Assembly (NCBI GenBank): GCA_041650835.1
Contig: JBAZKL010000002.1
Span: 338,472 to 402,471 of the forward strand
From: Candidatus Omnitrophota bacterium
GTDB taxonomy: Bacteria > Omnitrophota > Gorgyraeia > Gygaellales > Profunditerraquicolaceae
Length of the DNA stretch: 64,000 nt
Direction of reading: 5' to 3'
Positions 3,766 through 54,826 of this stretch are shown here, in pieces. The translations under genes were made by a program, and so were the position numbers. The notes under the pieces are model-generated. The model was not told where the DNA came from. It did not search any database and was given only the letters and a program-made list of their open reading frames with translations. Numbering within the stretch: position 1 is the first letter of the stretch; each line of letters opens with the position of its first letter.

Positions 3766-4385
3766 GCATCGCCAGACAAACCCCGCGCACCGCAAGCACT
3801 GCTGAAACAAGAAAGAATAAGTTCAAGCTCGTGGTAAAGGAATGGACTGAATCTATAGTAACTGCTTTTATCCTTGCGATGATCATCAGGATATTCGTCG
3901 TTCAGGCTTTTAAAATACCGACGGGTTCAATGAGGTTGACGCTGGTCGAAGGCGACATTATTTTAGTCAACAAATTCCTGTACGGCGCGAAACTCCCCCT
4001 GACCGACATCCGGCTGCCTGCGGTACGTAAACCACAACGGGGAGATGTAATAGTCTTTATTTATCCGGAAAACCCGAAAAAAGACTTTATCAAACGCCTC
4101 ATCGCCACAGAAGGGGAGAGCGTCGAAATAAAAGACGGGACGATCTACATAAACGATAGACCTCTTTTAGACCCGGTATTCAGCCAGAAGTATTATTATA
4201 ACCACGGCGATTACGCGCAGGAAGGTCAAAAGACCATTGTACCGAAGAATTCTTATTTTGTGCTCGGGGATAATTCGCAATCATCTCAAGACAGCAGGTT
4301 CTGGGGATTTGTACCCGAGAAGAACGTTATCGGAAAAGCTTTTATCATATACTGGCCGCTCAACCGGATAAGGTTAATCAAATAA
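3762..4385 (+). CDS. lepB: signal peptidase I (S26 family)
   Basis: N-terminal TM segment, catalytic Ser motif GSMRLTL and GDNSQSSQDSRFWG box; the classical lepA-lepB pair with a 4-nt overlap. Confidence 0.85.
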   Translation: MSIARQTPRTASTAETRKNKFKLVVKEWTESIVTAFILAMIIRIFVVQAFKIPTGSMRLTLVEGDIILVNKFLYGAKLPLTDIRLPAVRKPQRGDVIVFIYPENPKKDFIKRLIATEGESVEIKDGTIYINDRPLLDPVFSQKYYYNHGDYAQEGQKTIVPKNSYFVLGDNSQSSQDSRFWGFVPEKNVIGKAFIIYWPLNRIRLIK

Positions 4386-13824: not shown

Positions 13825-14052
13825 TTCCTTCTGGCAACGCAGCCCCCCGATTAATTAATCGGGGCTGTCGCTTTGCGCCCCAGCATTACTGCTGGTTTGC
13901 CTTTTACAGTACTCGAAATTGTCAAACCGAACTCGGGCCGATCGCCCTTATCCCTATCTCCAATTAAAATATAACATATATTTACACATATTTCAAGTTT
14001 ACCGCGCTATTATTTTATCAATATCACAATGTGTCATTTTACCCTAAACACT

Positions 14053-44995: not shown

Positions 44996-45173
44996 TATAC
45001 ACGCTCCTGAAAACACAGAAGACAAACAGCGTAAAAAAAGTTCACGTATGACAAGTTCAACATGAAAACGCGCGGGTTATCATTGGTACTTGACAAAAGC
45101 CAGACCCATAATATAATAAACGCGTTGTTTTATACTGTTGGAAGAAGTAAACAAGCCACCCAAAGGAGGAGAA

Positions 45174-46349
45174 ATGAAACAAAAAGTAGCGGTCAGGATA
45201 CTTTTGTGCTGTCTTTTACTCGTCTTATGTTGTAGTCCAGTGTTTGCGCAAATCAAGATCGGCGCGATCATGGATGAAAGCGGCAAGACTGCCGATGTCG
45301 GCTTACCGATGGCATGGGGGATCCAGGATTACATCACCTATCTCAATGATCACGGTGGTATCAACTCCCAAAAAATAGAACTGCTTTTAGAAGATGAAAA
45401 GTATGATGCCACCATAGCAAGAAACGCTTACATAAAGATTAGAAACGCTGGGGCAATCGCGATCTTAGGCTGGAGCACGGGAGCATCAAAAAGTTTACTT
45501 CCTGAAATCAATGCCAATAAAATCTGCTGGTTTTCAGCATCCATGGATGAAGGGCTTATTAACCCGGTCAGAGCCTATAATTTTATTCCCGGAGCTACCT
45601 ATACGCAACAATTCAACGCATTACTGCAATATGCGGCTGAACATCCCAAACAAATGAACGCGAAAGTCAAAGTAGCCATTATATACAACACTTCACCTTT
45701 TGGAATATCGGCATTAGAGTCTGGCACGGCAAAAGCCGCCGCATTAGGCCTTGACTTGGTCGCAAAAGAAATCGTAGAACTCAGCGCCACTGATGTAACA
45801 GAACAGATTGAAAGAATAAAGGCTCTTAACCCCGATTACGTTATCATCCAGGAAACAGGGGCCCCTACAATCAAGATCATCAATGGTTGCTTTAAAGCAG
45901 GGTTTAAGACGACTATTATGGGTACATTCTATTCCGGTGATGAAAGTGTGATAAAAAACTCCACAGAAGCGTTAAGTAATGGCGTGGAACTTATCGTCAC
46001 AAGCGTCTATAGCCGTTGGTATGAAACCAATGTGCCGGGAATGAAAGAAATCAAAGAATTTACCGCGAAGAACAGGGCTGATCTTAAAGAAATACCGGTC
46101 ACCTATATTCAAGGCTGGATCATGGCAAAGATATACGCTGAGGCATTAAAGAAAGCCGGAGATAATCCAACACGAGAGTCATTTCAGAATGCCCTGGAAT
46201 CATTGGATAATTTTGATACGGGTGGTTTAATGTATACCGTGGATTTCAGCGCTACCGACCATATTGCCGCAAACGGAGTAAAGATATTAAAAGCTGATGC
46301 CCAAACAGGGCGTTTTGCCCCTCTTACCGATTGGATTAAGATCAAATAA
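45174..46349 (+). CDS. ABC transporter substrate-binding protein (Leu/Ile/Val-binding, LivK-like family)
   Basis: AGGAGG RBS, signal peptide MKQKVAVRILLCCLLLVLCCSPVFA, Peripla_BP_6-like body. No cognate permease or ATPase adjacent. Confidence 0.75.
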   Translation: MKQKVAVRILLCCLLLVLCCSPVFAQIKIGAIMDESGKTADVGLPMAWGIQDYITYLNDHGGINSQKIELLLEDEKYDATIARNAYIKIRNAGAIAILGWSTGASKSLLPEINANKICWFSASMDEGLINPVRAYNFIPGATYTQQFNALLQYAAEHPKQMNAKVKVAIIYNTSPFGISALESGTAKAAALGLDLVAKEIVELSATDVTEQIERIKALNPDYVIIQETGAPTIKIINGCFKAGFKTTIMGTFYSGDESVIKNSTEALSNGVELIVTSVYSRWYETNVPGMKEIKEFTAKNRADLKEIPVTYIQGWIMAKIYAEALKKAGDNPTRESFQNALESLDNFDTGGLMYTVDFSATDHIAANGVKILKADAQTGRFAPLTDWIKIK

Positions 46350-46376
46350 ATCGGCAGGGGAGAGGAATTAAAGAAA

Positions 46377-46407
46377 AGGACACCCTTAAAAAGGTGTCCT
46401 TTTCTTT
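46377..46407 (+). terminator. rho-independent terminator
   Basis: aggacacc-cttaaaaa-ggtgtcct followed by tttcttt. Confidence 0.6.
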
Positions 46408-46411
46408 CTAC

Positions 46412-46440
46412 TTGACTACCACACATTTGTGTGGTAGTAT
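46412..46440 (+). promoter_or_regulatory. lexA promoter (TTGACT…TAGTAT) with an overlapping 22-bp perfect palindrome CTACCACACA-TT-TGTGTGGTAG (candidate LexA operator)
   Basis: The palindrome spans the -35/-10 spacer directly upstream of lexA (GTG 46478, AGGAG RBS). Confidence 0.5.
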
Positions 46441-46477
46441 ATGATCCATAGTCAATATTAATGATCAGGAGCCATAC

Positions 46478-47071
46478 GTGTCAAAAGAGCTTACTTTGAA
46501 ACAAAAGAAAGTATTGGATTTTATCAGTACCAGGATACGCGAGAATATACCGCCTACGATCCGGGAAATCGCCCAAAAATTAGGATTTTCATCAACCGGT
46601 ACCGTACGAGATTACCTCAACACACTTGAGAAAAAAGGCTATGTAAAGCGTACCAATAACAAATCCCGCGCTATTGAATTGTTACATATTTCACCAGGCA
46701 TTCCTATTGTAGGCAGCATTCCCGCAGGCAAGCCAGCTCTTGCATATGAAAATATTGAAGGCTATATCACCGATGACTTATTCCTGGGACGATTAAGCTT
46801 TGATGATGTTTTTGCGTTAAAAGTCAAAGGCGACAGCATGATCGATGCTGGCATTATGGATGGAGATATCGCCATCATTAAAAAGCAAACAACAGCGGAT
46901 AATTCTGATGTTGTGGCAGCATTATTTGAGGATAGTGAAGTAACCCTGAAAAGGCTCAAGATAAAAGAAAATAAAACCTTTCTAGAAGCCGCGAACAAAA
47001 ACTACGAACCTATTTACAAGCATTTCACGGTCATTGGGAAATTGATAACTATAGTAAGAAAATATATATAA
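46478..47071 (+). CDS. lexA: LexA repressor
   Basis: N-terminal winged HTH (IREIAQKLGFSSTGTVRDYLNTLEKKGY), Ala-Gly cleavage site (PAGKPALA), S24 Ser/Lys (VKGDSMIDAGI…AIIKK). Confidence 0.9.
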   Translation: MSKELTLKQKKVLDFISTRIRENIPPTIREIAQKLGFSSTGTVRDYLNTLEKKGYVKRTNNKSRAIELLHISPGIPIVGSIPAGKPALAYENIEGYITDDLFLGRLSFDDVFALKVKGDSMIDAGIMDGDIAIIKKQTTADNSDVVAALFEDSEVTLKRLKIKENKTFLEAANKNYEPIYKHFTVIGKLITIVRKYI

Positions 47072-47114
47072 TAGTCACAGGTCACAAGTAGTCCATAGTC
47101 GATAGTCCATAGTT
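47071..47114. repeat. short repeat 'tagtcacaggtcacaagtagtccatagtcgatagtccatagtt', copy 2, followed by a gtcattgcgaaa…gaagcaatc hairpin (47125-47162)
   Basis: Matches 5551-5590. The downstream hairpin is ccctgcgaagcaggg nested in cattgc…gcaat. Confidence 0.45.
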
Positions 47115-47233
47115 GCTTTCCCTGTCATTGCGAAACCCTGCGAAGCAGGGTTGAAGCAATCTTTTTAAATCCTGATATTCGGTGAACAGGGAATCGGAAG
47201 ATCTGGTACCAGAAAATTCGGAAAACAAGAGAC

Positions 47234-47548
47234 ATGAAACAGACGTTTAATCCAAAAGCGCGCTGGGACAGAAATGTCCCGCGGCAAGAAAACAACCCGG
47301 AAGAAGACAACGGATCACTCGATGAAAAGATTGACGTTCTTGCCTGGTTTAAGAGCGGGAAGATCTTCCCGCGGCTCTTCACCTGGAAGCAGAAAAAGTA
47401 TAAGATCAAGAACATTTCCTATACCTGGCAGGAGCGCCGCGGCCAGGAACTCATCACTTACTTTTCGGTCAATACAGGAATAGACCTTTACCAGATATCA
47501 TTTACTAACACAAGTTTCAGCTGGCAACTTAACAAAATAATCGAATAA
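47234..47548 (+). CDS. hypothetical small protein between lexA and dinB (possibly a YolD-like Pol-Y accessory protein)
   Basis: 104-aa ORF co-directional with and 10 nt upstream of dinB; no motif recognised; positional analogy only. Confidence 0.35.
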   Translation: MKQTFNPKARWDRNVPRQENNPEEDNGSLDEKIDVLAWFKSGKIFPRLFTWKQKKYKIKNISYTWQERRGQELITYFSVNTGIDLYQISFTNTSFSWQLNKIIE

Positions 47549-47557
47549 CTTCTTCCC

Positions 47558-48706
47558 ATGATACTCCATATCGACATGGACGCGTTTTTCGCCTCCATAG
47601 AACAAGCAATCAATCCCCGGCTTAAAGGCAAGCCATTAATTGTCGGCTCAAGAAACAATAAAATGCACACCGTTGTCTGCGCCGCAAGCTATGAAGCCAA
47701 AGCATATGGCATCAGCTCCGGTATGGCTTCAAAAGACGCGTATCAATTATGCCCGAACCTGGAATTTGTCCCCGCGGAGCAAAGCAAATATATCTGGACC
47801 TCAGAACAGATCCTTGAACTCATCAAAGCTTACGGCTTTGAGGTATCCTACGCATCGATTGATGAATTCCGCGTGGATATAGAAAAAGAACCCCGGCCGC
47901 TTATTCTAGCCCAAGGCATGCAAAAACAAATAGAAGACAGGTTCCATATTACCGCATCTATCGGTATAGCCAAAAATTGCATCTTAGCCAAATTAGCCTC
48001 AAAACTTAAGAAACCAAACGGCATAACCATACTGAGCGATGCAAACCTGATACCGGTCCTCACTCAAACCCCGGTACAGCGGCTATGCGGTATCGGCAAG
48101 AAATCACAGGTATTCTTTAATAGTTTAGGCATTCAAACCTGCCTTGACCTATACGAAAAAACACCCGATTTTCTGCAACGCTTTTCAGGAAGAAACGGGC
48201 TTAATCTCTATGCCGCATTACACGCGAATGAACATTTCAGCCAGGAAAGCAAAGATGAAACACCGCAATCAATAGGCCATTCATACACCTTACCAAGAGC
48301 GTCAAAAACCCCCCGGTTTATACGCTCCTGGCTGCGCCTTTTATCTGAAATGGTAGCAGAAAGATTACGGCAAAACAACCTCATAAGCCAAACCACACAT
48401 CTATGGCTCAATGGTCCGGAAATCGGCAATTTAACTGCGCAAAAGACCTTCGAACAAGCGAGTAATGATGGATATGAAATATACACCAGAGCCCTGAAAA
48501 TAATGGTCAAAATTGCCCCAAAACCGGCCCTTGTACGGGCATTGGGGATAACCAGCAGCTCATTGCATGAACCGCATTACCCCCCTCTATTTACCGAACA
48601 AAAAAGAAGGGAGGCCTTAATACAAGCGATAGATAAGATAAACAACAAACTTGGCGAAGGCAGCATTATTCCGGCCATAATAACCCTCTCCCGAAAACTC
48701 GAATAA
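47558..48706 (+). CDS. dinB: DNA polymerase IV (Y-family)
   Basis: ILHIDMDAFFASIEQ N-terminus, SIDE acidic motif, little-finger region; 382 aa. Confidence 0.9.
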   Translation: MILHIDMDAFFASIEQAINPRLKGKPLIVGSRNNKMHTVVCAASYEAKAYGISSGMASKDAYQLCPNLEFVPAEQSKYIWTSEQILELIKAYGFEVSYASIDEFRVDIEKEPRPLILAQGMQKQIEDRFHITASIGIAKNCILAKLASKLKKPNGITILSDANLIPVLTQTPVQRLCGIGKKSQVFFNSLGIQTCLDLYEKTPDFLQRFSGRNGLNLYAALHANEHFSQESKDETPQSIGHSYTLPRASKTPRFIRSWLRLLSEMVAERLRQNNLISQTTHLWLNGPEIGNLTAQKTFEQASNDGYEIYTRALKIMVKIAPKPALVRALGITSSSLHEPHYPPLFTEQKRREALIQAIDKINNKLGEGSIIPAIITLSRKLE

Positions 48707-49026: not shown

Positions 49027-49332
49027 TTATATTACGTTACGCTTGCGCTCAAGCGCTTTCTCAATATTAATTCTTTTGCCGGTCACCAGCATATCCGCCA
49101 AGGTCTTTCTGGCTTTTCTTAAGATCCGGCTTAGTGTTTGTTGGGATATTTGCATTGATCCCGCGGCCGCTTTTTGGCCTAATCCTTCAAAATCAACCAG
49201 CCGCACAGCCTCAAATTCATCAAGCTGTAAACACGCCTCATCAGGCCGGCCAGGACGCCCGCGCGGGCTGAAATGATCGACTTTAGGGGCATTCTTAACT
49301 AAACGCTTCTTTTTAGGCCTGCCGCGGATCAT
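49027..49332 (-). CDS. DUF134/UPF0251-family predicted DNA-binding protein
   Basis: MIRGRPKKKR…FSPRGRPGRP…EFEAVRLVDFEGL…QQTLSRIL, a sigma-70 region-4-like HTH. Confidence 0.65.
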   Translation of the reverse strand: MIRGRPKKKRLVKNAPKVDHFSPRGRPGRPDEACLQLDEFEAVRLVDFEGLGQKAAAGSMQISQQTLSRILRKARKTLADMLVTGKRINIEKALERKRNVI

Positions 49333-49454
49333 AAAACAACACCTTAGAAATAGCTAATATTTTAATAAAAACAACTGACCCGGCTTGCTTAATATTCTCA
49401 GTCTTAACACCCGGGTTATAATGAGTAAGTACTCATTATGACTATAGGGTTAAA

Positions 49455-54732: not shown

Positions 54733-54826
54733 ATAAAGATGCCCGCTTTCGCGGGCATCTAAAACACAAAAACCAACATCGGAATTTCTTCCAACGTTGG
54801 TTTTAAATATTATTTACCCGATAAAT

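Follow-up and report, generated by a model that had tools for sequence, protein, structure and literature searches.

The question raised by this locus is whether the perfect palindrome in the promoter of its lexA gene is the operator, or SOS box, of the LexA protein encoded there, and what kind of LexA specificity such an operator would represent. LexA is unusual among transcription factors in that its binding motif has changed repeatedly in the course of evolution, a turnover which is well known. A preliminary description of the window (the whole 64,000-nucleotide stretch analyzed here) had presented the site as a perfect 22-bp palindrome and as a non-canonical candidate SOS box with a lineage-specific recognition motif. 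As judged from the comparisons set out below, the palindrome is very probably the autoregulatory operator of LexA in this organism, an Omnitrophota bacterium.

The sequence at 46412–46440, read directly from the window, is TTGACTACCACACATTTGTGTGGTAGTAT, and the 22-bp palindrome is present within it as described, CTACCACACA-TT-TGTGTGGTAG at 46416–46437, with the symmetry extending one pair further into the arms ACTACCACACA (46415–46425) and TGTGTGGTAGT (46428–46438). The elements of the promoter and of the genes that follow it are:

46370–46409, plus strand: terminator-like hairpin with 18-nt arms, 94% complementary, and a T-rich tail
46412–46417, plus strand: -35 hexamer TTGACT of the lexA promoter
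46415–46438, no strand: full perfect palindrome ACTACCACACA-TT-TGTGTGGTAGT (11+2+11), from an inverted-repeat search
46419–46434, no strand: conserved 16-bp putative operator core CCACACATTTGTGTGG, the proposed LexA box CCACACA-NN-TGTGTGG, near-invariant in 76 unique lexA-operon promoters
46432–46440, plus strand: extended -10, TG-G-TAGTAT, sharing bases with the right arm of the box
46467–46471, plus strand: AGGAG as ribosome-binding site, spaced 6 nt from the GTG start of lexA
46478–47071, plus strand: lexA, 197 aa, GTG start, with LexA_DNA_bind and Peptidase_S24 domains
47234–47548, plus strand: small protein of the DUF6504 family, 104 aa, encoded second in the operon and found after lexA in 66 of 80 loci
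47558–48706, plus strand: Y-family (Pol IV-like) translesion polymerase, 382 aa, third gene of the operon, with Pfam IMS and IMS_C domains

The TAGTAT hexamer itself occupies 46435–46440, with a TG one base 5' of it, and is separated from TTGACT by a 17-bp spacer; a consensus promoter scan independently calls TTGACT-17-TAGTAT. The spacer is filled by the palindrome, just as had been proposed, with an overlap of 3 nt with the -35 and of 4 nt with the -10, and the palindrome lies 40 nt 5' of lexA. The hairpin at 46370–46409 ends the upstream gene for a periplasmic binding protein (ORF 45138–46349, Peripla_BP_6 in Pfam) and is the upstream edge of the lexA promoter. The lexA leader contains one copy of a short sequence, TCCATAGT (46444–46453), of which two more copies are in the spacer between lexA and the DUF6504 gene (47091–47114). 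At the leader site, a 12-nt insertion sets the 98%-identical relative L001 apart.

Taken by itself, the palindrome is just mildly unusual, since palindromes with 10-bp arms are present in about 23% of shuffled 64-kb windows (mean 0.32), and it is on this figure that the reading of the site as a chance palindrome without function can draw. In the window, the palindrome at 46415–46438 is the sole one with arms of at least 11 bp and a gap of at most 4, and a scan of the whole 64 kb allowing up to three mismatches detected no second box, neither before the 47234 ORF nor before the polymerase, which agrees with the earlier remark that no copy was apparent in front of dinB. The window has three other perfect palindromes of note. 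One of 10+2+10, TAATGAGTAAGTACTCATTA, lies between genes at 49418–49439, upstream of a DUF134 gene (49027–49332, minus strand), and may be an operator for the putative DNA-binding DUF134 protein; the two others, CCCCGATTAATTAATCGGGG at 13845–13864 and AGATGCCCGC-TTTC-GCGGGCATCT at 54737–54760, are GC-rich and are probably transcription terminators.

What decides against chance is the recurrence of the site in other genomes. A profile search with one genome per species yielded 80 lexA loci, of which almost all carry the label Omnitrophota; their LexA identities range from 98% to 51%, and in 76 of these loci the core CCACACA-NN-TGTGTGG is present, exactly or with one mismatch, upstream of lexA or its operon, at the corresponding promoter position and between variable flanks. 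More than 70 exact 16-mers were observed in these ~620 kb of Omnitrophota lexA loci, at orthologous promoters, against ~0.0015 expected by the authors' own base-composition estimate, which is not a tool output. Other phyla moreover have the box too, and it also precedes further damage-response genes. Chance is ruled out because the box is conserved elsewhere, and the probability left to a functionless palindrome is negligible.

Among the four loci without a full box, two are on contigs ending about 170–180 nt upstream of lexA and one has an N-masked region. The fourth, L074, retains the recognition helix STGTVRDYL and has a promoter with the right half-site alone (GCGCTAATTTGTGTGG, at about 3950–3975), which may reflect either decay of the operator or a fault in the assembly. 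The distance between box and lexA reaches 0.3–2.4 kb in about a dozen loci because other genes intervene. Two loci (L022, at about 3891–4010, and L045, at about 2777–2900) contain an in-frame insert of ~66 nt near the 5' end of lexA, bounded by a short TTGAC repeat, so that their LexA is called 22 aa longer; the insert may be a miniature insertion element. In two others, L007 and L018, another palindrome, CGTGACAATTTGTCACG, lies between dinD and lexA, and the CCACAC box is ~1 kb further upstream.

The position table of the 76 unique promoters assigns 1.8–2.0 bits to each of the 14 arm positions, while the surrounding sequence varies. The 22-mer of the preliminary description is in this respect too wide: the putative operator that is conserved is its 16-bp core, the outer arms, CTA/TAG, being peculiar to the present genome. 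The TA right after the core is likewise invariant among related promoters, but it belongs to the -10 and not to the operator. At the center of the dyad, 36 promoters have AA and 29 have TT, from which it follows that the box occurs in both orientations relative to the promoter, and the -35 occupies either of two offsets, TTGAC being found 1 or 2 nt upstream of the core in 74 of the 76.

These data also bear on a second alternative, in which the palindrome would act through promoter architecture or nucleic-acid structure: as a spacer element or extended -10, by forming a cruciform, or, in the RNA, as a hairpin giving the upstream gene a second terminator. The TG of the extended -10 is indeed supplied by the right arm of the palindrome, and the palindrome, if transcribed, would form a stable hairpin immediately downstream of the terminator of the preceding gene. 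The left arm, however, has no promoter role and is as invariant as the right one, and this invariance, together with the two orientations and the two -35 offsets, argues for a dyad-symmetric protein site and not for a promoter feature. A structural hairpin would tolerate compensatory changes, of which there are none in the 76 diverse promoters or in genomes of 59–72% GC; there is no T-run after the palindrome, no Rfam family reaches its gathering score in the palindrome region, and the box is found also between divergent genes and before polymerase genes with different -35 contexts. A purely structural role is therefore quite improbable, and the site is treated below as a candidate protein-binding site, for which LexA is the foremost candidate.

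The LexA encoded at the locus is a canonical one. Its winged helix matches PF01726 (E 1.7e-20) and its S24 peptidase domain PF00717 (E 3.6e-25), and it aligns over its full length with E. coli LexA structures (E 1e-32), the cleavage site A83-G84 and the catalytic residues S120 and K158 corresponding in the alignment to A84-G85, S119 and K156 of E. coli; all of these are invariant among 24 orthologues. The nearest homologues are annotated as Candidatus Omnitrophota/Omnitrophica, and two LexA paralogues (P0013 and P0018), 68–69% identical to the query, are annotated from a single Omnitrophica MAG (WOR_2 SM23_72). The recognition helix reads S39-TGTVRDYL here and S39-PNAAEEHL in E. coli, with the changes N41G, A42T, E44R and E45D in helix 3. 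These positions are the ones that contact bases in the E. coli LexA-DNA complex 3JSO, and since all of them differ a different DNA specificity is to be expected.

A covariation of the box with this helix is seen well beyond the Omnitrophota. Every box-linked LexA among the metagenome matches listed has the helix STG[TS][VA]RD[HY]L, on contigs of 33%–69% GC, and the GC-rich ones fall by best hits into two groups, one of Verrucomicrobiia and one of Planctomycetota or Candidatus Brocadiia. Eight further lexA loci were then picked by helix sequence only, and their promoters inspected. Those with STG[TS][VA]RD[HY]L had the exact box in four of four promoters, at 59–72% GC, in each case flanked by a -35 of TTGACA or TTGCCA type and a -10 beginning with TA:

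L255: box and STG[TS][VA]RD[HY]L helix, Verrucomicrobiia
L256: box and STG[TS][VA]RD[HY]L helix, Planctomycetota
L257: box and STG[TS][VA]RD[HY]L helix, Brocadiia
L258: box and STG[TS][VA]RD[HY]L helix, taxon unassigned

The box was present in none of the four promoters that belong to other helices (STNGVRDHL, STNGVEKHL, STKGVNDHL and TARAAFDHL). The STNGVRDHL locus, L259, has instead an E. coli-type CTGT-N8-ACAG box, CTGTGCAAACGCACAG, at 2943–2958. Its helix and the box-linked STGTVRDHL differ at two adjacent positions, and this pair could pinpoint the residues that switch LexA specificity. A Verrucomicrobiia-labelled LexA with the helix STGTARDHL has the CCACAC box, and Planctomycetota loci repeat the order of lexA, a DUF6504-like gene and a polymerase.

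The proposal of a candidate SOS box is thus borne out by a promoter position shared among 76 of the 80 Omnitrophota lexA loci and by covariation with the LexA helix, whereas that of a lineage-specific motif holds in one sense only: the motif is distinct and goes with a distinctive LexA helix, but the predicted specificity is common to Omnitrophota and to parts of Planctomycetota and Verrucomicrobiota. That the motif CCACACA-NN-TGTGTGG, undescribed as far as could be found, is read by a distinct STG[TS][VA]RD[HY]L clade of LexA in these three groups, with the lexA/DUF6504/Y-family polymerase cassette as its ancestral core regulon, is a broader proposition, and one that the comparisons favor with moderate confidence.

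The genes behind the box were compared by crude gene calling and clustering over the 80 loci, and follow a conserved order of box, lexA, a protein of ~102 aa, a Y-family polymerase of about 370–385 aa and a convergent DUF134 gene. The small proteins are the DUF6504 family, 23 of 24 members matching PF20114 (best E 2.4e-6); domain and profile searches found no recognizable DNA-binding domain in them, a profile search of PDB sequences gave no match to a known fold, and no paper mentioning the family was found. The polymerase at 47558–48706 fails to reach the cut-offs of the NCBIfam models for Pol IV. Only a few bases separate lexA from the small gene in many loci; in this window the gap is 162 bp and contains a hairpin without a T-run. 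The three genes are presumably co-transcribed, and this is most likely why the polymerase has no box of its own here.

A DUF6504-family gene lies directly before a Y-family polymerase gene in the window (47234–47548), in L256 (4081–4338), in L257 (3691–3948) and in L260 (914–1159); the pair is found in Omnitrophota, in Planctomycetota and on a Nitrospirota contig with a different LexA helix (hmmsearch E 1e-15 to 1e-18). From this distribution, DUF6504 looks like a widespread, uncharacterized accessory gene of translesion polymerases. Some box-led lexA operons of Omnitrophota have extra genes, which encode a DinD equivalog that scores 355 bits where the cut-off is 242, as well as RecQ and Fic/DOC-like proteins:

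L007, 3109–3957 and 4882–5901: extra operon genes
L016, 2133–3980: extra operon genes
L017, 1300–2118: extra operon genes
L021, 1739–2650: extra operon genes

By eye, a BRO-N-like (antirepressor-type) gene was also seen between box and lexA, and KilA-N- and ORF6N-like proteins in lexA operons, the latter two with no NCBIfam match.

Beyond lexA itself, the ~620 kb of genome loci gave one convincing extra site. It is in L077 (3880 and 4602), where a second copy of the lexA promoter, of its box (with the same one-base variant, CCACTCAAATGTGTGG, in both copies) and of some of the leader stands immediately before DUF6504/polymerase. A metagenome scan for CCACACANNTGTGTGGTA returned at least 120 stretches, whose sites were classed by the first genes downstream. 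Among the matches listed, 57 sites lie before lexA, 26 before DUF6504 and/or a Y-family polymerase, 2 before dinD or a Fic-like gene, and 36 are other or unclassifiable, many of them on incomplete contigs with the full TTGACA-box-TAT architecture. Box-led polymerase cassettes with no lexA on a contig of 4–13 kb were seen in eight cases (L163, L186, L195, L197, L250, L147, L185 and L242); in L150, 6 kb lie between the boxed cassette and lexA, and L235 has the box between divergent lexA and polymerase genes. A group of GC-rich contigs has a perfect 22-mer, ATACCACACAAATGTGTGGTAT, between a divergent YdjM-family gene (PF04307) and a polymerase of ~466 aa, and in L146 the box is followed by lexA and, 80 bp further, by recA. 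Box-led operons contain dinD, recQ and a gene with an NYN domain. In E. coli, dinB/umuC, dinD, ydjM and recA are classic LexA targets.

The preliminary description had held that the absence of any other occurrence before DNA-damage genes would speak against an SOS box, an objection which is removed by the copies before lexA-unlinked polymerase/DUF6504 cassettes, dinD, recQ and ydjM. Among the matches listed, no box was seen in Omnitrophota before recA, uvrA or other classic repair genes, and by tblastn the fetched loci are without an Omnitrophota recA or uvrA. Genes that may be targets in their own right encode a C5 cytosine methylase (L155) and a fragment of a DEAD-box helicase (L198); the NYN-domain gene (L139) and a DUF6625 gene (L142) were rejected as such, both being inserted between box and lexA.

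A scan of viral contigs for the 16-mer gave 54 matches, most of them unrelated hairpins or coding sequence at roughly chance level. Copies near recA/uvsX-like genes on low-GC phage contigs look unrelated, being downstream of these genes, at about 1.1–1.7 kb where measured. One contig classed as viral (L096, 435–450, GC about 0.53) shares with the metagenome contigs L202, L209 and L238 the sequence GCATTGACYA-CCACACAYATGTGTGG-TATAATAAAGACAA, which precedes small ORFs and an XRE-type HTH gene and, by eye, is adjoined by a CI-like repressor and a Bro-N-like (antirepressor-type) gene; it could be a phage promoter under the host LexA or the phage's own operator.

The gene neighborhoods allow a further alternative to be weighed, namely that the box is the operator for another regulator of the lexA-polymerase operon, be it the DUF6504 protein, the DUF134 protein or one encoded elsewhere. 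In the majority of Omnitrophota loci the box has DUF6504 and DUF134 genes near it, DUF134 has weak matches to sigma-70 region 4 and HTH-like domains, and binding to the box is a prediction for any protein, LexA included. Yet there are box-bearing lexA promoters without DUF6504, polymerase or DUF134 neighbors (L033, L046, L062, L255 and L258) and box-led polymerase genes without DUF6504, and the DUF6504 proteins have the lack of a recognizable DNA-binding domain against them. It is only LexA that tracks the box across phyla, the box covarying with the LexA recognition helix over three of them and from 33 to 72% GC, and another regulator is accordingly an unlikely owner of the site.

The reading of the site as the operator of LexA itself has in its favor the set of features by which SOS boxes are known, i.e., a promoter-overlapping dyad of ~14–20 bp, a footprint at the lexA promoter, copies before other damage genes and covariation with the helix. 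In the proposed mechanism, a LexA dimer would bind the dyad CCACACA-NN-TGTGTGG with one winged-helix domain per half-site, and would block RNA polymerase since the site takes the whole spacer between -35 and -10 and part of both hexamers, so that the operon of lexA, DUF6504 and Y-family polymerase would be repressed. Upon DNA damage, RecA would stimulate the self-cleavage of LexA at Ala83-Gly84 by the Ser120/Lys158 dyad, which would remove the repressor and induce the operon. Physical binding, repression and RecA-dependent cleavage are all predictions here. In silico, the data support a LexA class that recognizes CCACACA-NN-TGTGTGG, undescribed as far as found, with a small putative regulon centered on the polymerase cassette.

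For specialists in SOS evolution such a result would be solid and useful but unsurprising, because the turnover of LexA motifs is well known. Each newly defined motif nonetheless helps to explain how repressor and regulon change together, and this one would add a motif for phyla in which no SOS response has been described. Most Omnitrophota are uncultured, and many are ultra-small. If correct, the model would give a first view of the SOS response in Omnitrophota and Planctomycetota, and DUF6504 would count as a new accessory factor in translesion synthesis; the uncharacterized family is also marked as a likely partner of Y-family polymerases. The pairing of STNGVRD with CTGT-N8-ACAG and of STGTVRD with CCACAC-N4-GTGTGG offers a natural specificity contrast, and with so exact a motif, damage-inducible genes could be predicted in metagenome-assembled genomes.

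As to known systems, the difference from the E. coli and Gram-positive boxes which had been noted at the outset extends to all 12 LexA consensus patterns compared, none of which matches in the regions upstream of lexA and the polymerase (46350–46480, 47072–47240 and 47480–47560); the classes covered were E. coli, Gram-positive, Alphaproteobacteria, Cyanobacteria, Bdellovibrio, Geobacter, Xanthomonadales, Leptospira, Fibrobacter, Verrucomicrobia and Bacteroidetes. The Bacteroidetes motifs differ from CCACACA-NN-TGTGTGG, as does, by inspection, the direct repeat TTACACATATTTTWTACATA of Balneolaeota. The box resembles the SOS box of E. coli and other Gammaproteobacteria in being a 16-bp dyad that overlaps the core promoter of lexA itself, and the protein resembles E. 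coli LexA in its two-domain architecture, cleavage site and catalytic dyad. The predicted regulon likewise shares with that of E. coli a Y-family polymerase and homologues of dinD and ydjM, the families being confirmed here and the E. coli targets being established knowledge. In contrast, half-site and internal spacing differ, the E. coli box being CTGT-N8-ACAG and the present one CCACAC-N4-GTGTGG.

The box of Gram-positive bacteria and Actinobacteria, (C)GAAC-N4-GTTC(G), is similarly a palindrome with a 4-nt AT-rich center, and often serves small regulons that comprise lexA and translesion polymerases; its half-site is different, with no match here, and the corresponding helix is SSTVHGHL-like as opposed to STGTVRDYL. 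The operon as a whole calls to mind the umuDC, imuA-imuB-dnaE2 and yolD-like/Y-family polymerase cassettes, which likewise place a small accessory gene ahead of a Y-family polymerase under LexA-box control, frequently in linkage with lexA. It differs from them in that the accessory gene is DUF6504 and not UmuD, ImuA or YolD, and no dnaE2 was found in the lexA operon of the 80 loci.

By the count of a 2021 paper, 17 LexA motifs have been reported (PMC8565304). The present one was not found described in the openly accessible literature on LexA in Omnitrophica/Omnitrophota/Planctomycetes or in papers since 2020 that use the phrase "LexA-binding motif". The closest precedent is the Verrucomicrobia motif TGTTC-N4-GAACA of Erill et al. 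(2016; PMC4951493), whose authors regarded the SOS response as undocumented in the PVC superphylum. It too comes from the PVC group, is a palindromic spaced dyad of lexA promoters that controls a mutagenesis cassette, and was discovered by the same comparative logic, but its sequence is different and has no match here, and it was found in only 27 lexA promoters from 59 assemblies (PMC4951493). Set against the Verrucomicrobiia LexA with a CCACAC box, it implies that at least two LexA specificities seem to exist in the phylum, the motif proposed here being the second one for Verrucomicrobiota.
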